From the sequence record MZ234013.1: a stretch of 64,000 bases of DNA; one strand, given 5' to 3'. Positions 1,752-64,000 of the stretch are shown here, piece by piece. Below the pieces are notes generated by a model, which saw nothing but the letters and a program-made list of their open reading frames with translations, had not been told where the DNA came from and searched no databases. Numbering within the stretch: the stretch's first letter is position 1; each line of letters opens with the position of its first letter. The DNA comes from Escherichia phage vB_EcoM-101112UKE3-1. The position numbers were made by a program, and so were the translations under genes.

Positions 1752-2045
1752 ATGAAAAAATTTATCTTTGCTACAATTTTTGCTTTAGCTTCTTGTGCTG
1801 CTCAGCCTGCTATGGCAGGTTATGATAAAGATTTATGTGAATGGTCTATGACTGCAGATCAGACTGAAGTTGAAACTCAAATTGAAGCGGATATTATGAA
1901 TATCGTTGAGCGTGATCGTCCTGAAATGAAAGCTGAAGTACAAAAACAGCTTAAATCAGGTGGTGTGATGCAGTATAACTATGTTTTGTATTGCGATAAA
2001 AACTTTAATAACAAAAATATCGTAACCGAAATCACAGGTGAATAA
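1752..2045 (+). CDS. sp: Spackle periplasmic protein (lysis from without / superinfection related), 97 aa
   Basis: N-terminal signal peptide MKKFIFATIFALASCAAQPAMA; size and position match T4 sp. Confidence 0.8.
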   Translation: MKKFIFATIFALASCAAQPAMAGYDKDLCEWSMTADQTEVETQIEADIMNIVERDRPEMKAEVQKQLKSGGVMQYNYVLYCDKNFNNKNIVTEITGE

Positions 2046-2046
2046 T

Positions 2047-2685
2047 ATGATTTATTACATGCACAAAAACGCGCCGTTTAAATATGGTAAATTTCCTAAT
2101 GCGCAATGTTATAATATAACGCCGAATGAAAATAATAATGGATACCATATCGGTGTAATTTTTGTAATTGTTAAAGATAACGAAATCGTTGCCTGGGCAG
2201 ATTTTAAAGGTACAACACATGATGTTAATCCGGTGCCTTTCACATATTACAATATAATGGATTTGGCATATGATTATAATTGGTTTAATCATGACACGTT
2301 GGCTCATATTCATATTGAAGGTGTAGGATTTGACATCTCTTATTCTAGCTACTCATTGTGTCCTATGAGTCGGGCTCATAAAGAACCTGAATATTTTTCA
2401 TTTAGGAAACGTGTAAACTTTAAACGCAGCACAGAGTATGTCGGTGGAATATTTGTTAAAGATAATCGAATTATTCGTATTAATTATCCTTTGGGCTGTG
2501 GTCAAAAAGATATTGATGTTGATTTAGATTTCACTGAAAATAATATTAATCATATTGCTTCTGTGTATTTTGGTATCGATCACAAAATTGTAATATGTGG
2601 ATATGAATTACCGTTTGAAGAACAGCCTAAAGTAAAAGTTTCTATTGACGATCAAATTTTTAATGCTTTTATGAATAGAGGTTAA
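2047..2685 (+). CDS. hypothetical protein (T4 61.2 position)
   Basis: ORF; ATG at 2047 overlaps sp stop; track ORF starts at upstream GTG. Confidence 0.55.
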   Translation: MIYYMHKNAPFKYGKFPNAQCYNITPNENNNGYHIGVIFVIVKDNEIVAWADFKGTTHDVNPVPFTYYNIMDLAYDYNWFNHDTLAHIHIEGVGFDISYSSYSLCPMSRAHKEPEYFSFRKRVNFKRSTEYVGGIFVKDNRIIRINYPLGCGQKDIDVDLDFTENNINHIASVYFGIDHKIVICGYELPFEEQPKVKVSIDDQIFNAFMNRG

Positions 2686-4179: not shown

Positions 4180-5519
<1,340 letters not shown>

Positions 5520-8624: not shown

Positions 8625-9248
8625 ATGATTATTAATCTCGCAGATGTTGAACAGTTATCTATAAAAGCTGAAAGTGTCGATTTTCAATATGATATGTACA
8701 AAAAGGTCTGTGAAAAATTTACTGACTTTGAACAGTCAGTTCTTTGGCAGTGTATGGAAGCCAAAAAGAATGAAGCTCTTCATCGGCAGTTGAATAAAAT
8801 CGTTAAAAAGCATTTAACTAAATCGCCTTATCAGCTATATCGTGGTATATCAAAATCGACAAAAGAACTCATTAAAGATTTACAAGTTGGAGAAGTGTTT
8901 TCAACGAACAGAGTAGATTCATTTACTACTAGTTTGCACACAGCATGTGGTTTTTCTTATGTTGAGTATTTCACTGAAATAATATTTCGCTTAAAAACTG
9001 ATAAAGCTTTTAATTATTCTGACCATATCAGCGATATTATACTTTCTTCTCCTAATACTGAATTTAAGTATACATATGAAGATACTGATGGATTAGATTC
9101 AGAACGTACTGATAACTTAATGATGATTGTACGTGAACAAGAATGGATGATTCCAATTGGAAAGTATAAAATAACTTCTATTTCAAAAGAAAAATTACAC
9201 GATTCATTTGGAACATTTAAAGTGTATGATATTGAGGTAGTTGAATGA
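8625..9248 (+). CDS. modB: ADP-ribosyltransferase ModB, 207 aa
   Basis: R-S-E ADP-ribosyltransferase motif pattern (YRG...STS...EQEWMIP); size and position as T4 modB. Confidence 0.75.
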   Translation: MIINLADVEQLSIKAESVDFQYDMYKKVCEKFTDFEQSVLWQCMEAKKNEALHRQLNKIVKKHLTKSPYQLYRGISKSTKELIKDLQVGEVFSTNRVDSFTTSLHTACGFSYVEYFTEIIFRLKTDKAFNYSDHISDIILSSPNTEFKYTYEDTDGLDSERTDNLMMIVREQEWMIPIGKYKITSISKEKLHDSFGTFKVYDIEVVE

Positions 9249-9847
9249 AATATTCAGCAATGCAATTAAAAGATTTTAAAATCAAATCAATGGATGCATC
9301 TGTGCGTGCTTCTATTCGTGAAGAATTACTTTCCGAAGGATTTAATTTATCTGAAATTGAACTTTTAATTCATTGTATTACTAATAAACCAGACGATCAT
9401 TCTTGGTTAAATGAAATAGTCAAATCTCGTTTGGTTCCAAACGATAAACCTCTTTGGAGAGGTGTTCCAGTTGAGACTAAACAGGTGTTAAATCAAGGAA
9501 TTGATATTATTACATTTGATAAAGTAGTATCAGCTTCATATGATAAAAATATAGCTCTACATTTTGCTTCTGGATTAGAATACAACACACAAGTTATTTT
9601 TGAATTCAAAGCTCCTATGGTGTTTAATTTCCAGGAGTATGCTATAAAAGCTCTACGCTGTAAAGAATACAATCCAAACTTTAAGTTTCCGGATAGTCAT
9701 CGTTATCGTAATATGGAATTAGTTTCAGATGAACAAGAAGTAATGATACCAGCTGGAAGTGTATTTAGAATTGCAGATAGATATGAGTATAAAAAGTGTT
9801 CAACATACACTATCTATACTCTTGATTTTGAAGGATTTAATCTATAA
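9245..9847 (+). CDS. modA: ADP-ribosyltransferase ModA, 200 aa
   Basis: R-S-E motif pattern (LWRG...SAS...EQEVMIP); paralog of upstream ORF. Confidence 0.75.
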   Translation: MKYSAMQLKDFKIKSMDASVRASIREELLSEGFNLSEIELLIHCITNKPDDHSWLNEIVKSRLVPNDKPLWRGVPVETKQVLNQGIDIITFDKVVSASYDKNIALHFASGLEYNTQVIFEFKAPMVFNFQEYAIKALRCKEYNPNFKFPDSHRYRNMELVSDEQEVMIPAGSVFRIADRYEYKKCSTYTIYTLDFEGFNL

Positions 9848-30077: not shown

Positions 30078-30734
30078 TTATTTAGCCCTTCCTAATATTC
30101 TGGCCGCCTGAGAACATATTGATTCAAGGCGGTCATTACTTATATGATCATTTCTATACCAGTACATGGTTATTGTTCCAGCATAGATATTATCCAAATT
30201 GAAATATGGACAACTGTACATGTAATTTATTTCGGGAGTAGGCTTTTTGGTTGGTAAAAAAGCAAATTTTGAGTCGGAATAATAATGACGTCCATTTAAA
30301 TGAACTGTATATTCATCCATAGTTTTATCAACAGGATATCCTCCAAGTGATTTTTCACTTATTGTTGAAGGTAATTTTCCTTCATATGCTATAATATCAA
30401 CAAAGTAGTTTAAGTTTTTAGGGCGGAAAGAATACACCGCACTAAAGTCTGCCTCAGATGATATATGAACTATCTGGAGTTGTTCCAGGGCGACAGATTC
30501 AAAGCGTGCATTTCTTTCCTTTTCAATAATTTCACTGTATGTTTCATACTTTGATTGCTTATAGTACTCAAAGAAACTATCTCCCCTATACCAAACAATC
30601 GCCATTATAAACAAAAGAATTACGACAGCCACTCGGGAAGCAAGAACCTTCCCGGTAGCGTTATCTTTGAACAAGCGATCTAGAACACCAAATAGAATAT
30701 CAGAGGGCGAAAATGATATTCTAGGTGCTGCCAT
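30078..30734 (-). CDS. t: holin T, 218 aa
   Basis: 218 aa; N-terminal TM segment; sequence matches T4 holin. Confidence 0.9.
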   Translation of the reverse strand: MAAPRISFSPSDILFGVLDRLFKDNATGKVLASRVAVVILLFIMAIVWYRGDSFFEYYKQSKYETYSEIIEKERNARFESVALEQLQIVHISSEADFSAVYSFRPKNLNYFVDIIAYEGKLPSTISEKSLGGYPVDKTMDEYTVHLNGRHYYSDSKFAFLPTKKPTPEINYMYSCPYFNLDNIYAGTITMYWYRNDHISNDRLESICSQAARILGRAK

Positions 30735-30764: not shown

Positions 30765-31544
30765 TTATACTCTTGGACCGTATATTGCTCCAACATTTTG
30801 CCATGTTGGAGCGGACCCTATGACAGCATAACCAGCAGCTCCGCCGTTATATTCTGCACCGTTACCATGAGTATTACATCTTCCTCCAGCAGCACCAACG
30901 TTACCGCCCGCACCGCCTGTATATGCACTAAGAGACCCATTACCGACAGATCCTGCACCCGGAGCGTAAATGGTGCCAGCGGTTGCGCCTGTATTCATAC
31001 CAATAGATCCGCCAGGTGCACCAAACGGACGCCCACCGCCGCCGCCAAATACTAGTCGACCCCTGTTACCGCCGCCACCGCCGCCACCGCCGCCTGCAAT
31101 AGCTCCACCATTATTAATTCTTAGTCTCCCACCAATATCGTTTTGAATACAATGACCTCCAGCTGAGCCAGGACTATCCATACCGCCATTACCGCCACGT
31201 CCATACATCGTTACGCCGTGTATATTCAGCTGAACATATTCATTCGGTGTATCTCCATACATGAAGAATAAAGGAACATCTCTAGAATATGATACTAAAT
31301 CACCTGTAATATTAAACACTATAGGTGCATTACCTGCCTCAAAACATCTATCTCGGAACCATTGACCATTGAAGTTATGGTCTGCTCCAAGCGTGTGAAT
31401 AATTTCTCGTGAGCGACCTGCAAATTGACTCATCCAGCAAGGAACACCCAATCTTAATTGACCAGCCGCTTGACTCATCCAGCGCTGACCCGTTTCATTT
31501 ACGGATGAACTTCCAATCCAACCGGGAACACCAACTACTGCCAT
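30765..31544 (-). CDS. 38: gp38 long-tail-fibre adhesin (T2-type, glycine-rich motifs)
   Basis: N-terminus [13 protein letters not shown]...; multiple poly-Gly motifs with intervening variable segments; immediately downstream of gp37. Confidence 0.85.
31033..31095. repeat. low-complexity GCC/ACC repeat encoding poly-glycine of gp38
   Basis: ccgccgccaccgccgccaccgccgcc run on + strand. Confidence 0.8.
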
Positions 31545-31576
31545 AATTATCTCCAAAGGGGCAAAGCCCCTTGTTG

Positions 31577-34561
31577 TTAGAATTTAAAATAATTACTAAT
31601 TTTGCGAGCAATTTTAGTGAAGAAAGGCGTTTTTAATTCTTTAATTTCTTCGCTCATTTCTTGGATAGCCTTAATTAAAAGAGCATTTACAGCGGAGTTA
31701 GAAATTGTCAGAACATCAGAACCATCAACTTCAACTTTAGACACAGCTTCCGGTAATTCCTTTTCAAGGTCCTGAGCAATAATACCAACTTCGCGTTTAA
31801 TAACACTACGGTCTTTAATAGACTTAACCTTATCGTAAATATAAACTTTCAGTCGGCATACTTTTTCAAGTGCTCCGTTTTCTAGCTCTTTTTTATTAAT
31901 CTTAAGACGACCATCGGAACGAATATACACATCGTTAAAGTTACCATTACCAGGAGAATAGAAAGTACCGTCGTAATGAAATTCAAATACCGCGTTAGGG
32001 TGTCCAGTCGCTGGCGATGCCTCTGCAGATCCAACACGAATAATTGCTTGCCCCCAATTGTTAGGGACACGACGAATACCAAGATCGACGGCAGTTACAA
32101 ACCCTTGATTGGTGATTACACTTTTTCCTTTAATAATTGGATAATAACAATCCTGTGAAACATAACCATGATCGACGAATAATGGAGCTTCTACTCGCCA
32201 TTGGTTGCCCCAATCACCCGGTTGTCTAGCAATCCATCCAGAACCGTTAATGTGTACACGATCGCGGTTAACGTTAACCATTGCGATATTTTGTGGATTT
32301 AGCGAAATCTCACCATTGTTTGTGATATGTACTGCCGCCTGAGTAGCATAGCTATAAAATGCTAGCGAATTATCAGCACCACTCTTACCAATATACCAGT
32401 TACCACTCCCGTCTACGTCACCACGAATATACAAAGCATTACCAGCAGTTGTTGATAATACAATAGAATCACCCGGACGTTTAATAATCAATCTACCTTC
32501 GGATTCAACTTCACCAAAGAATTTAGTTTTAATTGCACCAGTCGCTAAAGTACGTTCAGTGGAAAAATGAACGCCTTTGCTGTCTTCTAACTGAATAATG
32601 TTATCGCGCGCATTATTACTATCACCCCAATGGTTAAATTTAAAATAATCTCGTGATCCTAAACGTCCGGCATCAAAAGTCATCAAGCCTTTTATATTAA
32701 TATCACCACCAAAAAATGCGGTGAGAGAATCGCGTTTTAATTTTAAAACGTTAGCACCACTAGTACCACCCAAAGTAACATCACCAGTTCTTAATTCATA
32801 ACGGAAAGGTCTATTTGTATTAAAGTTTCCATCTTGATCATTTTCGTCGGTGGAAAGAATATAAAGACTCTCTCCATCATTACGGAAAATTGTACCAAAT
32901 TTTCCGCCATACATACGGAATGCATTAGATGAGCGGAATTTAACTTCTGTTTTAAATGTGGTAGTGTTATTAAGGTTAACAGTAGAGTTAAAATTGGTAG
33001 GAGCACCGAAGTTAACAGCACCATTAAAATCTTGTTGAGCTGTCCATGTGTGGCGACCATCTTCAAGAACAACACGGCGGACTGTGCAAGTTCTATTTCC
33101 AGAATTACCGAACACACGAACGACAAAATAACGGTAGTTTGTCTGGGATACAGTACCGCGCCAAACCTGAACAGTACGCCCTGTGCTAGTATGTTCACTA
33201 GGACCAACGGAAAACATAACCAGGTTTCCGTCAATCGTCCCCCAATCCATATTTGCTGGCATGTTCTTTATTTTGTTCAAAGGAACGCTAAACATACTAC
33301 CAGGAACAAAATCAAAGGTTTGCCAATCTAACTCCGCTAATTGAGCTTTAATACCACCCATACCCAAAGTAATTGGAAGAGAATAAGATGTATATACTTC
33401 GTTCCATGCACCCCACGCACCACCAGTATATGCACGCTCAAAAATACGATCGCGAGTAGTTGCACCCGTTCCGGCAGTAGTAAATTTTTGGAAAATAGCA
33501 CCACCAGAAGCACGCTGTTTAACTTCCAGCAAACCAACAATAACGGCTGGTAAACCTTCACCAGTAGGACAGTTAATAACGGCATCAGTGCCTAAAATGT
33601 TATATAACCCAGGAGTTTTAAAATCATTCAGATCTCCATCATAGAAAGTCGCTGGTGTGCCATGACCAACCTGCTTCCATTCCTCCCACTTAGGTGCACT
33701 AGCATCCCATGCAGCAGCGAGACAACGAGTATAAACCATACCCATGCGGGTAGTATAACGCTGCGTTCTTGTGTATAAACCACCTTCAAATATTTCTAAA
33801 AATCCTTGTGCGGCTGATCCTTCTTCTGGATAATGGCGATCAAATGATGCGATTGCGCTTGAACTGTTTCTCCATAAGCCACAATGTTCTAATTCTCCCA
33901 AGCTATCAAGGTCAATCGTTTGTGAAAGTGGACGAGTTGACGCTTGAACATTACGCCACACACCCCATGGACCATCGACGCCATTCCATTTAGCAGATAA
34001 GGAACGAATATAGACGTTACCAGATCTTACAGTATAACGCTGAGTGCCAGCAAATTGGCCGGCCACAAATACTTCTAGTACACCTACGGCATTTTCTTCT
34101 GGGAATTTATTTGCTGGTTGCGCATTTGTTGAAGTAGATTTCGACCAAACACCAAGATATTCTTCAATGGGCCCATACGTATCTAAATTAGCATCAGTAG
34201 GTAATTCGCCATTATTTTTTATAAATGTTGTGCTATTGACATTTATGTCAGATGGAGTTAAGGTAATGTCCTTTGACCCATCAAAAGATATACCATTAAT
34301 TTTCCTAGGTGTTTGCAATTTAGTAGCTGTGCTAGAATTTCCAATTAAAGTCCCAGTTATATTTTCTGTAACCTCTAAAGACCCATTTATAGTTCCTCCA
34401 TATTTTAAACCTAATTCTATAACACTACCTGAGTCATCTTTTGTGAAAATTGTTTTATCTTTTAAGTTTATAGCCAATTCACCTTCGGCTAATACTGAAG
34501 CAGCAGGACGTTGACCTGCAGTTTTGCTTCTTTTAAATTGTATTTGTTTTAAAGTAGCCAT
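31577..34561 (-). CDS. 37: long tail fibre distal subunit gp37, 994 aa
   Basis: Sequence matches T-even gp37 N-terminus; gene order 34-35-36-37-38. Confidence 0.9.
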
Positions 34562-45775: not shown

Positions 45776-46323
45776 TGAAACAATACCAATTTTTAATTAA
45801 AGATATCCTGGAAAATGGCTACGAAACCGATGACCGAACAGGCACAGGAACAATTGCTTTGTTCGGTACTAAATTACGCTGGGATTTAACTAAAGGTTTT
45901 CCTGCAGTAACAACTAAGAAGCTCGCCTGGAAAGCTTGCATTGCTGAGCTGCTTTGGTTTTTATCGGGAAGCACAAATGTCAATGATTTGCGATTAATTC
46001 AACATGATTCGTTAATCCAAGGCAAAACAGTTTGGGATGAAAATTACGAAAATCAAGCAAAAGATTTAGGATACCATAGCGGTGAACTTGGTCCAATTTA
46101 TGGAAAACAGTGGCGTGATTTTGGTGGTGTAGACCAAATTATAGAAGTTATTGATCGTATTAAAAAATTGCCAAATGATAGGCGTCAAATTGTTTCAGCA
46201 TGGAATCCAGCTGAACTCAAGCAGATGGCATTACCGCCTTGTCATATGTTCTATCAGTTTAATGTGCGTAATGGCTATTTGGATTTGCAGTGGTATCAAC
46301 GATCAGTAGATGTTTTCTTGGGT
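45775..46323 (+). CDS. td: thymidylate synthase, exon 1 (183 codons)
   Basis: Matches T4 TS from MKQYQ to ...VDVFLG; frame breaks at the group I intron 5' splice site. Confidence 0.9.
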
Positions 46324-46643
46324 TAATTGAGGCCTGAGTATAAGGTGACTTATACTTGTAATCTATCTAAACGGGGAACCTCTCTAGTAGACAATCCCGT
46401 GCTAAATTGTAGGACTACCCTTTAATAATTTCATCAGGATTAGTTACTTATCGTGTAAAATCTGATAAATGGAATTGGTTCTACATAAATGCCTAACGAC
46501 TATCCCTTTGGGGAGTAGGGTCAAGTGACTCGAAACGATAGACAACTTGCTTTAACAAGTTGGAGATATAGTCTGATCTGCATGGTGACATGCAGCTGGA
46601 TATAATTCCGGGGTAAGATTAACGACCTTATCTGAACATAATG
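46324..46643 (+). ncRNA. group I self-splicing intron in td, 320 nt, lacking an intact homing endonuclease ORF
   Basis: 5' end TAATTGAGGCCTGAGTATAAGGTGACTTATAC... and 3' end ...GGGGTAAGATTAACGACCTTATCTGAACATAATG match the T4 td intron core; TS frame resumes at 46644. Confidence 0.85.
46431..46496 (+). pseudogene. probable remnant of intron homing endonuclease I-TevI (3' terminal codons only)
   Basis: In-frame SSGLVTYRVKSDKWNWFYINA then stop, with no start codon; recalled as the I-TevI C-terminus. Confidence 0.5.
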
Positions 46644-59292: not shown

Positions 59293-59300
59293 TATAAATA
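59293..59300 (+). promoter_or_regulatory. T4 late promoter TATAAATA upstream of rIII
   Basis: Exact box immediately after gene 31 stop. Confidence 0.5.
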
Positions 59301-59439
59301 ATAATATGAATTGGGTGTCGGAATAATAAGTTAACCGAACAATTCTATGTGGTAGTCTACAACTGAGAGATCTGTCGAAAGAAGATGAAATTCAGAAGAA
59401 CGTGACTACCGAGTTTTAATCTCTAACGAGAATTTTTAA

Positions 59440-59688
59440 ATGATTAAACAATTACAACACGCTCTTGAACTGCAACGAAACGCATGGAATAATGGTCACG
59501 AAAACTATGGCGCATCTATTGATGTTGAAGCCGAAGCTCTTGAAATCCTGCGTTATTTCAAACATCTGAATCCTGCTCAAACTGCATTAGCTGCTGAGCT
59601 TCAGGAAAAAGATGAACTTAAATATGCTAAGCCTTTGGCTTCTGCTGCGCGAAAAGCAGTTCGTCACTTTGTGGTAACATTGAAGTAA
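59440..59688 (+). CDS. rIII: rIII lysis inhibition accessory protein, 82 aa
   Basis: Sequence and length match T4 rIII. Confidence 0.85.
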   Translation: MIKQLQHALELQRNAWNNGHENYGASIDVEAEALEILRYFKHLNPAQTALAAELQEKDELKYAKPLASAARKAVRHFVVTLK

Positions 59689-59932
59689 TTTATTGGAGAT
59701 TCACTGCCTTAGTGTGAGCTAAATCGAGGAGCCGTCGAACTGTCTGATTAATGATTTGCGAATCATTATAGTTTTAAGACCCCGGCAGTTTTACGGTGTA
59801 CATCTTGAATGTGAATGATGACGGGTTTATGGTTATCCTGGTCGTTAAATATCCAAAAACCTATGTTCCCCTTGAGGGCTTGCGCAGGCAATGCCAATAA
59901 GTCCTGCATTTTCATTTAAAAGAGAATTTATA

Positions 59933-60109
59933 ATGGCAAAACAAGCTAAAGCAAAGAAAGCAGTTGAAAAGAAAGTTGGTGATTCTAAACGCGCTGGCTA
60001 CAAGCGTGGGTCGAACTCTCGTATTAATCAAACTGTTGAGAAGATCATGCGTCGAGCACGTGCGGTTCTTCGAGATGATGCTTCTCGTTTTGGTAAGCAG
60101 AAAGCATAA
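59933..60109 (+). CDS. small highly basic protein, 58 aa
   Basis: ATG with GAGAA SD; Lys/Arg-rich. Confidence 0.5.
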   Translation: MAKQAKAKKAVEKKVGDSKRAGYKRGSNSRINQTVEKIMRRARAVLRDDASRFGKQKA

Positions 60110-60113
60110 GTTG

Positions 60114-60143
60114 AGGACTCCTTCGGGAGTCCTTTTTTATTTT
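60114..60143 (+). terminator. intrinsic terminator (GAGGACTCC-TTCG-GGAGTCC + T6)
   Basis: Hairpin plus U tract; same stem as the terminator at 6419. Confidence 0.75.
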
Positions 60144-60162
60144 CCAAAGATTGCACAAAGTT

Positions 60163-60192
60163 GTTTACAGTACGGTTCCTTTGTGATAGTAT
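60163..60192 (+). promoter_or_regulatory. T4-type early promoter
   Basis: GTTTAC then 18 nt then TAGTAT. Confidence 0.5.
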
Positions 60193-60219
60193 TATCTTAC
60201 ACAAACAAAGGAGAATAAA

Positions 60220-60552
60220 ATGAAAACGATTAATCTGAACGCTACAGTTAAAACTAAATGCTTCAATGGTAAATATGATGAAACTATGTGGTTCTTAATG
60301 GCAGTTGAAGGTGATATTATTGAAGTAGAAACAACAGAAGGTATGGGAACAGATTTCACCTTTACAATCCAAGTTCATAATTTCTTTACTGGTTGGATTT
60401 ATGAATTGAATACAGTAATCGTTGGAAAAATTGAACAAAATGAATTAGGTGAATGGTATTATGTTACAGCTCGCCAACGTGCCGAACGCTTAATTGAGAA
60501 GATGAAAAAAGTTGGTAAACTTGACATGAAGCATTGGAAAGTAGTAAAATAA
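60220..60552 (+). CDS. hypothetical protein, 110 aa
   Basis: ORF with GGAGAA SD. Confidence 0.5.
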   Translation: MKTINLNATVKTKCFNGKYDETMWFLMAVEGDIIEVETTEGMGTDFTFTIQVHNFFTGWIYELNTVIVGKIEQNELGEWYYVTARQRAERLIEKMKKVGKLDMKHWKVVK

Positions 60553-60554
60553 TT

Positions 60555-60583
60555 GTTTACTTTGGTACAGGATATGATATTAT
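60555..60583 (+). promoter_or_regulatory. T4-type early promoter
   Basis: GTTTAC then 17 nt then TATTAT. Confidence 0.45.
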
Positions 60584-60620
60584 ATATCTGTACCGCAATT
60601 AAACATCTCGGAGAATAAAA

Positions 60621-60986
60621 ATGAACTACATCAACTTTGAACGTAAATATGTTTCTAACGGTATTGCAGGTTCTATTGATACTATCTGCCTTTGGAAACA
60701 TCAAAATGGATCAGTATGCGAAATTGAACAGTATATGACTCCTAACTACGTTTATATGCGATTTGAAAATGGCATCACGGTTTCAATCACGAAAGAAGGT
60801 TCTTCTTTTAAAATCGCATTAGATGATGATTTTCGTCAACGTGATTTAGGGACTCATCCTTGCTGGAATGGCGTCAATCGTAAGCTTCTGGTTAAAACTT
60901 GGATTCGTCATATTCTGAGTAACAGAGCTAAACCTGAACATCTTGAAGCAATCTTTGATGTAGTTCTTAACGAATTTGATATTTAA
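60621..60986 (+). CDS. hypothetical protein, 121 aa
   Basis: ORF with GGAGAA SD. Confidence 0.5.
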   Translation: MNYINFERKYVSNGIAGSIDTICLWKHQNGSVCEIEQYMTPNYVYMRFENGITVSITKEGSSFKIALDDDFRQRDLGTHPCWNGVNRKLLVKTWIRHILSNRAKPEHLEAIFDVVLNEFDI

Positions 60987-61026
60987 AATAAAACAGGGGC
61001 TTTGGCCCCTTACTGAGGAAAATGTT

Positions 61027-61314
61027 ATGTTTATGACTACTTATTTTGATACCCGTAAAAACTTCTGCGAAGTAGTTTTCTCAAAGGCACCTAAAGACCT
61101 TCCTGCACATTTGCAACCTACTAGCGAATCGATTAAAAACTACGTTGATGTGGTTTGTCCTTTAGAGTTTCGTACTGTAAATGGGCGCGATACTTTAGCT
61201 ATCACTAAACTCAATCGCGAAATTGACATTGACCCTTCAATTGCGCGTGAAATTAACATTTCTGATATTGGCGGCGGTAATGTTAAATCGCACGGTTTTC
61301 AGATGAGGTTTTAA
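61027..61314 (+). CDS. hypothetical protein, 95 aa
   Basis: ATG with GAGGAAAA SD; track ORF starts upstream. Confidence 0.45.
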   Translation: MFMTTYFDTRKNFCEVVFSKAPKDLPAHLQPTSESIKNYVDVVCPLEFRTVNGRDTLAITKLNREIDIDPSIAREINISDIGGGNVKSHGFQMRF

Positions 61315-61511
61315 TGAAATTCTTTTTAGGTCAAACCGTTGAATTAAAGGGAGTTGGTATACCTGGATTAATTTCTAAGGTTTTACCTCCATTTAAATGG
61401 AGTGGTATTCAAATAAAAGAGGCTTATATTGTTTCCTGGGTAGATGGAAATGAAGACCTTCGTATGGGTGATGAATTATCTCCTATCTACGGATTAAAGG
61501 AATTAGTATGA
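61314..61511 (+). CDS. hypothetical protein, 65 aa
   Basis: ORF. Confidence 0.45.
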   Translation: MKFFLGQTVELKGVGIPGLISKVLPPFKWSGIQIKEAYIVSWVDGNEDLRMGDELSPIYGLKELV

Positions 61512-61714
61512 ATATAATTAATAAGATTTTTGGAATTCAGTACATTAAGGTCACATATAAAGTAACAGATAAAAATCCATATACCGATGAACATGAAGAA
61601 CCACAAATTGAGTCTATTATATTAGAAAAAGGCAGTGACTGGCCAGTTGAATTTCGTCTACCAAACTATGGTCATTGGGCTGATGTTGAAATTATAAGCA
61701 TTGAAAATGTCTGA
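61508..61714 (+). CDS. hypothetical protein, 68 aa
   Basis: ORF. Confidence 0.45.
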   Translation: MNIINKIFGIQYIKVTYKVTDKNPYTDEHEEPQIESIILEKGSDWPVEFRLPNYGHWADVEIISIENV

Positions 61715-62165
61715 GTTAGAGATTAGAAGTAATTTTAGGTGGCCATCATGTGCATTAAGTAATTTCGCCCATTGGCCTTTCGTTATGGATGGTATTCAAT
61801 TTGGAGGTCTTGAAGGATTCCTCCAAGGATGCAAGGTGAAAAACGTTGAACAACAACGTCGTATATTTGGGTTATCCGGGCTTGCCGCTCAACAAGCTGG
61901 AAGGTCTTATGCTAGAGCTCAGGACCGTGGGACCCTCTTCTGGCTTGGAGTTCCATTTTCAAGATACTCCCCGGCGTGGAAAGAATTATACACAAATGCA
62001 TATTTTGAAGCAGCGATTCAAAACAAGGGCTTTCGTGATGCATTACAAGCCTCGAAAGGAAAAGTTTTGAAGCACAGCATGGCTAGTGGTCTAACAAAAG
62101 ATGATACAATACTAACCGAAGCTGAATTTATTGATGTGTTAAACCTATTAAGAGACTCTCTATGA
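61707..62165 (+). CDS. NADAR-family (YbiA/DUF1768-like) protein, about 152 aa
   Basis: Motif SNFAHWPFVMDGIQFGGLEGFLQGCK parallels E. coli YbiA SNFAAWPIKVDGKTWPTSEHYFQAQK; start at ATG 61707 (track ORF starts at TTG 61701). Confidence 0.65.
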   Translation: MSELEIRSNFRWPSCALSNFAHWPFVMDGIQFGGLEGFLQGCKVKNVEQQRRIFGLSGLAAQQAGRSYARAQDRGTLFWLGVPFSRYSPAWKELYTNAYFEAAIQNKGFRDALQASKGKVLKHSMASGLTKDDTILTEAEFIDVLNLLRDSL

Positions 62166-63001
62166 AGCCTACTATTTTAACTGATATTGATGGAGTATGT
62201 TTAAGCTGGCAATCAGGTCTTCCTTATTTTGCTCAGAAATATAATCTTCCGTTAGAACATATTTTAAAAATGATCCAGGATGAGAAATTTATTTCTCCAG
62301 GTAAACTCTTTAATTGTGACGAAGAACTTGGCGTCAAGCTAATTGAAAAATACAATCGTTCAGATTTTATTCGTTACTTGTCTCCATATAAAGATGCTCT
62401 GTGTGTAATTAACAAATTAAAAGAAGATTATAATTTTGTAGCTGTTACAGCATTGGGTGATTCTATTGACGCTCTGCTGAATCGTCAATTTAATTTAAAC
62501 GCTCTTTTTCCTGGTGCCTTCTCAGAAGTACTGATGTGTGGTCATGATTCTTCAAAAGAAGAGTTGTTTAAAAAGGCAAAAGAGAAATATAACGTGATTT
62601 GTTATATTGACGATCTCGCTCACCATTGCGATCATGCGAGTGAAATATTAAATGTTCCTGTTTATTGGATGGCTCGAGGAGAGCGTGACAATATTCCAAA
62701 AACTGCTCAGCGAGTTTATACATGGAATGATGTAGAAAATAAGCTTTTTTCACCGAAGGAAAATAAAGAAAGTTTTGATAGTGAAAAAGCTATAAAAGAT
62801 GTAATTGAAAAGATGATTAAAAACGATTCTTTTCCTTGGAACACTACCTGGAGAACTCCTGGATTTAATCCTTATAATCATCCATATCATCCATATCAGA
62901 CGCATCCGTTTCAGACATGGAACTATATTAAACCCGGTGGCATAGAGTATTTGTATAATAGACCTACTGGTGCTAATAATATTTTCCAAGGAGCATTCTA
63001 A
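62162..63001 (+). CDS. HAD-superfamily hydrolase-like protein, 279 aa
   Basis: N-terminal motif LTDIDGV (DxDx[TV]); position upstream of gene 30. Confidence 0.55.
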   Translation: MKPTILTDIDGVCLSWQSGLPYFAQKYNLPLEHILKMIQDEKFISPGKLFNCDEELGVKLIEKYNRSDFIRYLSPYKDALCVINKLKEDYNFVAVTALGDSIDALLNRQFNLNALFPGAFSEVLMCGHDSSKEELFKKAKEKYNVICYIDDLAHHCDHASEILNVPVYWMARGERDNIPKTAQRVYTWNDVENKLFSPKENKESFDSEKAIKDVIEKMIKNDSFPWNTTWRTPGFNPYNHPYHPYQTHPFQTWNYIKPGGIEYLYNRPTGANNIFQGAF

Positions 63002-63270
63002 TGTTTGTTGTTCACACTATTTATGAAAATGAAGGTAATACTACACGTGATTACGGTCACGTAAATCAATTTTTTAGATGCAATCCAGAATTCCGAGCTC
63101 AAAAAGACGAACGAATTTTTAAAAAATGCGTAGAGCAAGGTTTCATTTACGTCAAGCACTGGATGCAAGGAAATAAAGTTAGAACCACGTACCACAGGTC
63201 TTTGACTGAGCTTAATGATGAATTGATTTATAATAGAGCTGTAAACCAAACTCTAAAGGATGAACAATGA
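63001..63270 (+). CDS. hypothetical protein, 89 aa
   Basis: ORF. Confidence 0.5.
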   Translation: MFVVHTIYENEGNTTRDYGHVNQFFRCNPEFRAQKDERIFKKCVEQGFIYVKHWMQGNKVRTTYHRSLTELNDELIYNRAVNQTLKDEQ

Positions 63271-64000
63271 TTCTTAAAATTCTGAACGAAATAGCATCTA
63301 TTGGTTCAACTAAGCAGAAGCAAGCAATTCTTGAAAAGAATAAAGATAATGAATTGCTTAAACGAGTATATCGTCTGACTTATTCTCGTGGGTTACAGTA
63401 TTATATCAAGAAATGGCCTAAACCTGGTATTGCTACCCAGAGTTTTGGAATGCTGACTATTACTGATATGCTTGACTTCATTGAATTTACATTAGCTACT
63501 CGAAAATTGACCGGAAATGCGGCAATTGAGGAATTAGTAGGTTATATTACTGACGGTAAAAAAGATGATGTTGAAGTTTTGCGTCGAGTGATGATGCGAG
63601 ACCTTGAATGTGGTGCTTCAGTATCTATTGCAAACAAAGTTTGGCCAGGTTTAATTCCTGAACAACCTCAAATGCTCGCAAGTTCTTATGATGAAAAAGG
63701 CATTAATAAGAATATCAAATTTCCAGCCTTTGCCCAGTTAAAAGCTGATGGAGCTCGGTGCTTTGCCGAAGTCAGAGGTGATGAATTAGATGACGTTCGT
63801 CTTTTATCACGAGCTGGTAATGAATATCTAGGATTAGATCTTCTTAAGGAAGAATTAATCAAAATGACCGCTGAAGCCCGCCAGATTCATCCAGAAGGCG
63901 TGTTAATTGATGGCGAATTGGTATACCATGAGCAAGTTAAAAAGGAGCCAGAAGGCCTAGATTTTCTTTTTGATGCTTATCCTGAAAACAGTAAAGCTAA
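63267..64000 (+). CDS. 30: ATP-dependent DNA ligase gp30, 3'-truncated by window edge
   Basis: Sequence matches T4 DNA ligase from MILKILNEIASIGSTKQKQ. Confidence 0.92.
   Translation, partial: MILKILNEIASIGSTKQKQAILEKNKDNELLKRVYRLTYSRGLQYYIKKWPKPGIATQSFGMLTITDMLDFIEFTLATRKLTGNAAIEELVGYITDGKKDDVEVLRRVMMRDLECGASVSIANKVWPGLIPEQPQMLASSYDEKGINKNIKFPAFAQLKADGARCFAEVRGDELDDVRLLSRAGNEYLGLDLLKEELIKMTAEARQIHPEGVLIDGELVYHEQVKKEPEGLDFLFDAYPENSKA

Follow-up and report, generated by a model that had tools for sequence, protein, structure and literature searches.

The open reading frame at positions 61707-62165 of the window (the whole stretch of 64,000 nucleotides from Escherichia phage vB_EcoM-101112UKE3-1, sequence record MZ234013.1) very probably encodes an N-glycosidase that removes ADP-ribose from guanine and counters the DarTG1 system of the host, as an ortholog of adfN of phage T4. 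By sequence comparison it is the ortholog of gene 30.3 of T4, which has been renamed adfN (anti-DarT factor NADAR). The finding is already known, in that each of the checks which the initial annotation had proposed for this gene has been published for the 99%-identical protein of T4.

Reading frame and T4-type context

The listing of open reading frames carries the 30.3 frame upstream to a TTG at 61701; judged from the sequence, the ATG at 61707 is taken as the 30.3 start, being the start annotated in T4 and the one that gives the published residue numbering (E36, K43). The upstream neighbor of adfN is a gene of 68 codons and the downstream neighbor a gene of 279 codons. The features of the gene and its junctions are as follows.

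61707-62165, plus strand: coding sequence of adfN (gene 30.3), ATG at 61707, TGA ending at 62165, 152 codons plus TGA
61707-61714, plus strand: overlap of the 30.4 stop and the 30.3 start (ATGTCTGA), read off the sequence
62162-62165, plus strand: overlap of the 30.3 stop and the 30.2 start (ATGA), read off the sequence
62162-63001, plus strand: gene 30.2, 279 amino acids, its start overlapping the adfN stop through the ATGA
61846-62070, plus strand: internal open reading frame 30.3', annotated in T4 as a second gene, in the +1 frame inside adfN

No clear Shine-Dalgarno sequence was seen upstream of 30.3, and translation of 30.3 may be coupled to that of 30.4. A promoter scan of positions 59300-63400 yielded 16 sites against 14.4 expected from shuffled sequence, which is no excess, and no promoter is claimed. 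When 30.3 was compared with its counterparts in the relatives RZ and CLB_P2 (approximately 80% nucleotide identity), 60 of the 94 and 55 of the 89 differences, respectively, fell on third codon positions, and the ratio of synonymous to non-synonymous changes among the changed codons was 49:21 (RZ) and 45:22 (CLB_P2). Since third-position and synonymous changes predominate, the 30.3 reading frame is under purifying selection, and the open reading frame at 61707-62165 is confirmed as a real gene.

The encoded protein is identical to T4 gp30.3 at 150 of 152 positions and of equal length, the only differences being Q22H and I125M, and phages Shinka and SHFML-26 encode exactly the window protein. 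Both substituted columns are variable across the family (alignment A1, see below), with methionine as the consensus at column 125. The protein matched the Pfam family PF08010 (Phage_30_3) in hmmscan with an E-value of 7e-70 and a score of 233.6 bits (cut-off 36), the match covering the whole profile (positions 1-138 of 138). The window keeps the T4 gene order 30.4-30.3-30.2-30.1-ligase (tblastn with T4 proteins; annotated T4 and Shinka records), cd, rIII, 30.4, 30.3 and 30.2 were placed in T4 order in the window by the same tblastn search, and the 30.x order also recurs in a metagenomic relative that is 58% identical. The 2.3 kb around adfN showed 99.3% identity with several Yersinia and Escherichia T4-like phages. 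On these sequence grounds the source phage of the window is placed in Tequatrovirus. T4 adfN and the window gene have the same neighbors, the same overlaps at both gene junctions, the residues E36, K43 and H123 and the C-terminal helix in common, whereas the ATG of the internal 30.3' frame of T4 is an ACG in the window.

That substitution is synonymous in 30.3. Within the 30.3' region, synonymous and non-synonymous changes relative to RZ and CLB_P2 numbered 22:10 and 20:12 when read in the 30.3 frame, whereas the same substitutions read in the 30.3' frame gave 7:29 (RZ) and 9:29 (CLB_P2); 10-29% of synonymous-codon shuffles produced a stop-free stretch that equalled or exceeded 30.3' in length. 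With its ATG lost, its changes mostly non-synonymous and its length reached by shuffles, 30.3' is unsupported as a second gene.

The initial annotation had described local GC as noticeably higher than the flanks, and this was borne out at a modest level: the adfN open reading frame has a GC content of 41.8%, compared with 35.4% on average over the window, and ranks among the top 3.2% of segments of its size. GC peaks inside the frame at 0.44-0.45, the flanks lying at 0.31-0.36. By codon position, GC is 0.50 (first), 0.43 (second) and 0.32 (third), the last being under the window mean of 0.354. Because the excess lies in the first and second positions and GC3 is low, the raised GC reflects amino-acid composition, and its reading as a sign of horizontal acquisition was rejected on the same figures.

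Elsewhere in the window the following features were located.

2038-2685, plus strand: adfA (homologue of T4 gene 61.2), intact, the other known anti-DarT factor
8625-9245, plus strand: modB
9245-9844, plus strand: modA
30078-30734, minus strand: open reading frame of 218 amino acids, presumably resembling the T4 holin
30765-31556, minus strand: open reading frame of a glycine-rich protein of 263 amino acids, the GC-richest stretch of the window (0.52-0.53)
31577-34561, minus strand: open reading frame of 994 amino acids, by its position apparently the long-tail-fibre gene 37
46314-46595, plus strand: group I intron (RF00028, 66.9 bits), the sole Rfam match in the window

The glycine-rich protein is presumed, from its position, to be a gp38 adhesin of the T2/T6 type and not of the T4 type, and the 994-residue and 218-residue frames beside it are likewise presumed to be gene 37 and holin-like; these putative identities suggest that the phage is not T4 itself. 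The group I intron is, by position, probably the td intron.

NADAR homology, fold and subfamily

In a direct hmmscan the protein gave no match to the Pfam NADAR family PF08719 at E<=1, and single-sequence searches gave no match in NCBIfam or PADLOC; phmmer of the protein against the PDB returned just a chance-level match to the unrelated entry 3rjz (E 0.61). The direct NADAR match is missing because gp30.3 has a Pfam family of its own (PF08010), and its lack is an artefact of that split and not a true negative; it took profile and structure methods to bring out the NADAR relationship. A total of 104 homologues were collected, of which 56 full-length sequences were aligned (alignment A1), and PF08719 was matched by 21 of these 56, with a best E-value of 1.5e-7. 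The Pfam check suggested by the initial annotation thus came out divided, failing for the protein itself and succeeding for the homologues, and the absence of a significant NADAR profile hit, which had been offered there as grounds for refutation, would have misfired.

When the A1 profile was searched against all PDB sequences, E. coli YbiA (2b3w) ranked first (E 0.005), the match lying over the core motif. Comparison of A1 with YbiA in hhalign gave a probability of 93.4% and an E-value of 2.5e-7 over 90 columns, aligning residues 15-122 of the window protein with YbiA residues 27-124 (the YbiA sequence used was verified to be identical to 2b3w, residues 1-160), and pairwise BLASTP of the window protein against YbiA gave 33% identity over 57 amino acids with an E-value of 1e-5, calculated for a single comparison. 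The resemblance to YbiA exceeds chance. The two peptides on which the earlier comparison had rested were traced in the protein: the N-terminal peptide SNFAHWPFVMDGIQFGGLEGFLQGCK corresponds to residues 18-43 and is aligned to YbiA by BLASTP, hmmsearch and hhalign, and the downstream helix ELYTNAYFEAAIQNKGFRDAL corresponds to residues 93-113 and falls within the hhalign alignment; the YbiA core motif quoted alongside them is a correct string present in 2b3w. An AlphaFold2 model built on A1 (mean pLDDT 91.8) has the alpha+beta fold of NADAR proteins, with a helical core flanked by small beta-hairpins, and the closest solved structure, by sequence as well as by Foldseek, is YbiA. Membership of the NADAR superfamily, as the initial annotation had claimed, is supported by fold, by profile homology and by the catalytic residues E36 and K43. 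The residues and structural parts concerned are listed below.

61755-61835, plus strand: NADAR core motif, residues 17-43 (LSNFAHWPFVMDGIQFGGLEGFLQGCK), aligned to YbiA residues 29-55 by hmmsearch, BLASTP and hhalign
61812-61814, plus strand: codon GAA of the catalytic glutamate E36, invariant in A1 and aligned to YbiA E48
61833-61835, plus strand: codon AAG of the phosphate-contacting lysine K43, shared by no fewer than 90% of the A1 sequences and paired with K55 of YbiA
62073-62075, plus strand: codon of H123, invariant in the 56 homologues of A1
62118-62162, plus strand: C-terminal helix, residues 138-152 (modelled helix 138-151), intact here

Residues L17, S18, N19, F20, E36, G37, F38 and Q40 are invariant in the 56 homologues. 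The protein carries the E-x6-K pattern, the E36-K43 spacing of seven residues equalling that of E88 and K95 in E. coli C7 DarG1. In the literature the classes are separated by one residue of the last beta-strand, a Glu in proteins of the YbiA type, an Asp in DarG1 and a His in the gp30.3-type NADARs of phages; the hhalign alignment ends at K122, paired with YbiA V124, and by extension H123 would face YbiA E125. Histidine, not Glu or Asp, thus appears to occupy the last strand of the window protein, and together with the conserved E36 and K43 this class-defining position makes the protein a NADAR of the phage class, outside the YbiA and DarG1 subfamilies.

The protein differs from YbiA (approximately 20% identity) in having His123 in place of Glu125, in an extra beta-hairpin (residues 76-85) where YbiA has a gap, and in the absence of the DAxWGxG segment which follows the last strand in both YbiA and the NADAR of Phytophthora nicotianae; the role of YbiA is housekeeping, whereas that of the window protein would be counter-defence. 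Although YbiA is the closest solved structure, a YbiA-like function as a housekeeping N-glycosidase destroying reactive intermediates of the riboflavin pathway is extremely improbable: the class-defining Glu of YbiA (E125) is His here and in 56/56 homologues, the DAxWGxG stretch is lacking, and damage control of riboflavin has no evident use for a lytic phage. The P. nicotianae protein (8bau, a complex with ADP-ribose), which is eukaryotic and has Glu in the last strand, shares 19% identity with the window protein. The NADARs of the DarG1 type (BC4488 family; G. lovleyi 8bat, E. coli C7) are 15% identical to it; unlike them it is core-only (152 versus 219 amino acids), lacks the N-terminal extension of DarG1, has His123 where DarG1 has its catalytic Asp, and stands as an orphan, with no DarT gene beside it where DarG1 has DarT1 as its operon partner. 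No Pfam domain was found in the flanking genes 30.4 and 30.2, and no DarT-like or other ADP-ribosyltransferase (ART) domain was detected beside adfN. T4 AdfN, in addition, cannot substitute for DarG1 in uninfected cells.

Anti-DarT activity and substrate

The initial annotation had suggested that the protein could act in counter-defense against DarT-like toxins of the host, and for the 99%-identical T4 protein this has been shown experimentally (PMC11825919, PMC11125620). Resistance of T-even phages to DarTG1 was mapped to gene 30.3, which was renamed adfN (Johannesman et al., Nat Commun 2025, PMC11825919). The deletion phenotype that had been proposed as a check is published there, T4 and T2 without adfN forming no plaques on DarTG1 hosts, whereas ectopic adfN rescues RB69, a DarTG1-sensitive phage whose own adfN allele has lost its last 15 residues through a frameshift; T4 AdfN truncated at the RB69 frameshift point has lower activity (PMC11825919). 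DNA modified by DarT1 is freed of its ADP-ribose by purified AdfN but not by the E36A mutant; in vivo, E36A, although inactive in vitro, as well as K43A, still gave partial rescue only (PMC11825919). The in vitro hydrolysis proposed earlier on is likewise available from an independent study in Toxins 2024 (PMC11125620), in which the T4 protein hydrolyzed guanine-ADP-ribose but not thymine-ADP-ribose, and a 2026 study gave the substrates of the phage class as guanine-ADP-ribose on DNA and RNA, but not cytidine-ADP-ribose.

The mechanism that would follow for the window protein begins with host DarT1 (of the DarTG1 system) ADP-ribosylating guanines in replicating phage DNA. AdfN, a minimal, core-only N-glycosidase of the NADAR fold, would bind the ADP-ribose, placing the distal ribose next to E36 and H123 and the phosphates next to K43, and would cleave the N-glycosidic bond between ribose and guanine, leaving unmodified DNA on which replication could continue. 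The allele with H22 and M125 would be expected, with high confidence, to behave like T4 AdfN, because the catalytic residues and the C-terminal helix are kept and both substitutions lie at variable columns.

The gene is already explained by the plaquing failure of adfN deletions on DarTG1 hosts and by the de-ADP-ribosylation of DNA in vitro. These results make it unlikely that AdfN acts mainly on soluble derivatives of ADP-ribose, such as immune signals of the host or products of RNA repair, and not on DNA, as was proposed for phage NADARs in general by Iyer et al. 2022 (PMC9503650). The comparative genomics behind that proposal (PMC9503650), the free ADP-ribose bound in the NADAR pocket of 8bau and a distant gp30.3-type gene (locus L004) with a Nudix gene ~2.6 kb and a Thg1-family gene ~3.8 kb away are in keeping with a soluble substrate; none has been demonstrated for gp30.3.

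The second role that the initial annotation had considered, tuning of ADP-ribosylation driven by the phage itself, found no support. Such a role, in which AdfN would tune or clean up the modifications made by the phage transferases Alt, ModA and ModB, could draw on the presence of modB and modA within the window (the genes being located as that annotation had stated), on the position of alt directly downstream of the ligase gene in close relatives, and on the early joint expression of NADAR and ARTs in T4-like phages (Iyer et al., PMC9503650). It is nonetheless very improbable, given that the annotated targets of Alt and Mod are proteins (RNA polymerase alpha, S1 and EF-Tu), whereas the demonstrated NADAR activities are all on nucleobase N-glycosidic bonds, those of guanine for the phage class, and that no such phenotype has been reported.

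One of the proposed checks turned out differently from what counter-defense by removal of guanine-ADP-ribose might suggest. Rescue of DarT toxicity in E. coli has been tried for T4 AdfN and was negative outside T-even infection: both groups found no rescue of DarT1 toxicity in uninfected E. coli, and T4 AdfN barely helps phages outside the T-even group (PMC11825919, PMC11125620). The picture of a free-standing eraser enzyme is incomplete, because AdfN of T4 fails without T-even infection.

Gene 30.2, distribution and annotation

T-even AdfN might need an obligate partner encoded by the phage, for which the HAD-phosphatase-like gp30.2 is a candidate because its start overlaps the adfN stop and, among the loci examined, its adjacency is confined to T4-like genomes; this is a decidedly doubtful proposal, and it is speculation that gp30.2 might bring AdfN to replicating DNA or act on the ADP-ribose once it is set free. 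The protein gp30.2 contains motifs resembling those of HAD phosphatases (TDIDGV close to the N-terminus, with YIDD at a later position) and matches PHROG 420 (function unknown), with a weak match to a polynucleotide-kinase PHROG (E 0.0027) and no sequence match in Pfam, NCBIfam or the PDB. Among the loci examined with tblastn, 30.2 lies beside gp30.3-type genes only in T4-like contigs (L010, L011) and was not found in the more distant contigs L004-L009; on this distribution, the idea that gp30.2 is a conserved partner was rejected.

Of 50,697 phage records, 1510 have a gene of the gp30.3 type, the carriers being mainly T4-like phages of Escherichia, Klebsiella, Aeromonas, Acinetobacter and Vibrio. 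Several T4-like phages (P0007, P0014, P0016, P0017, P0049, P0093) have truncated gp30.3 fragments, or fragments joined to parts of gp30.7, of gp30.8 or of other proteins, suggesting that the 30.3-30.8 cluster has undergone deletion repeatedly and that adfN is lost in nature. At loci L004-L006 (~5001-5468), a gp30.3-type NADAR 38% identical to the window protein lies on a 308-kb metagenomic contig in a context that differs from the T4-like one, with a Nudix hydrolase gene ~2.6 kb downstream on the opposite strand and, at L004 and L006, a Thg1-family gene ~3.8 kb downstream, also on the opposite strand.

The window holds both known T-even anti-DarT factors, adfN and adfA, of which adfA is present as a divergent allele (only 75% identity with its T4 counterpart, whereas the neighbors sp, 61 and dmd reach 95-100%). 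In almost all of 40 sampled records with gp30.3-type genes the label is 'hypothetical protein', despite the published function. The value of the present assignment lies in annotation, with nothing new on mechanism: carrying over the adfN label would improve the prediction of host range on strains bearing DarTG1, including that of therapeutic T4-like phages.
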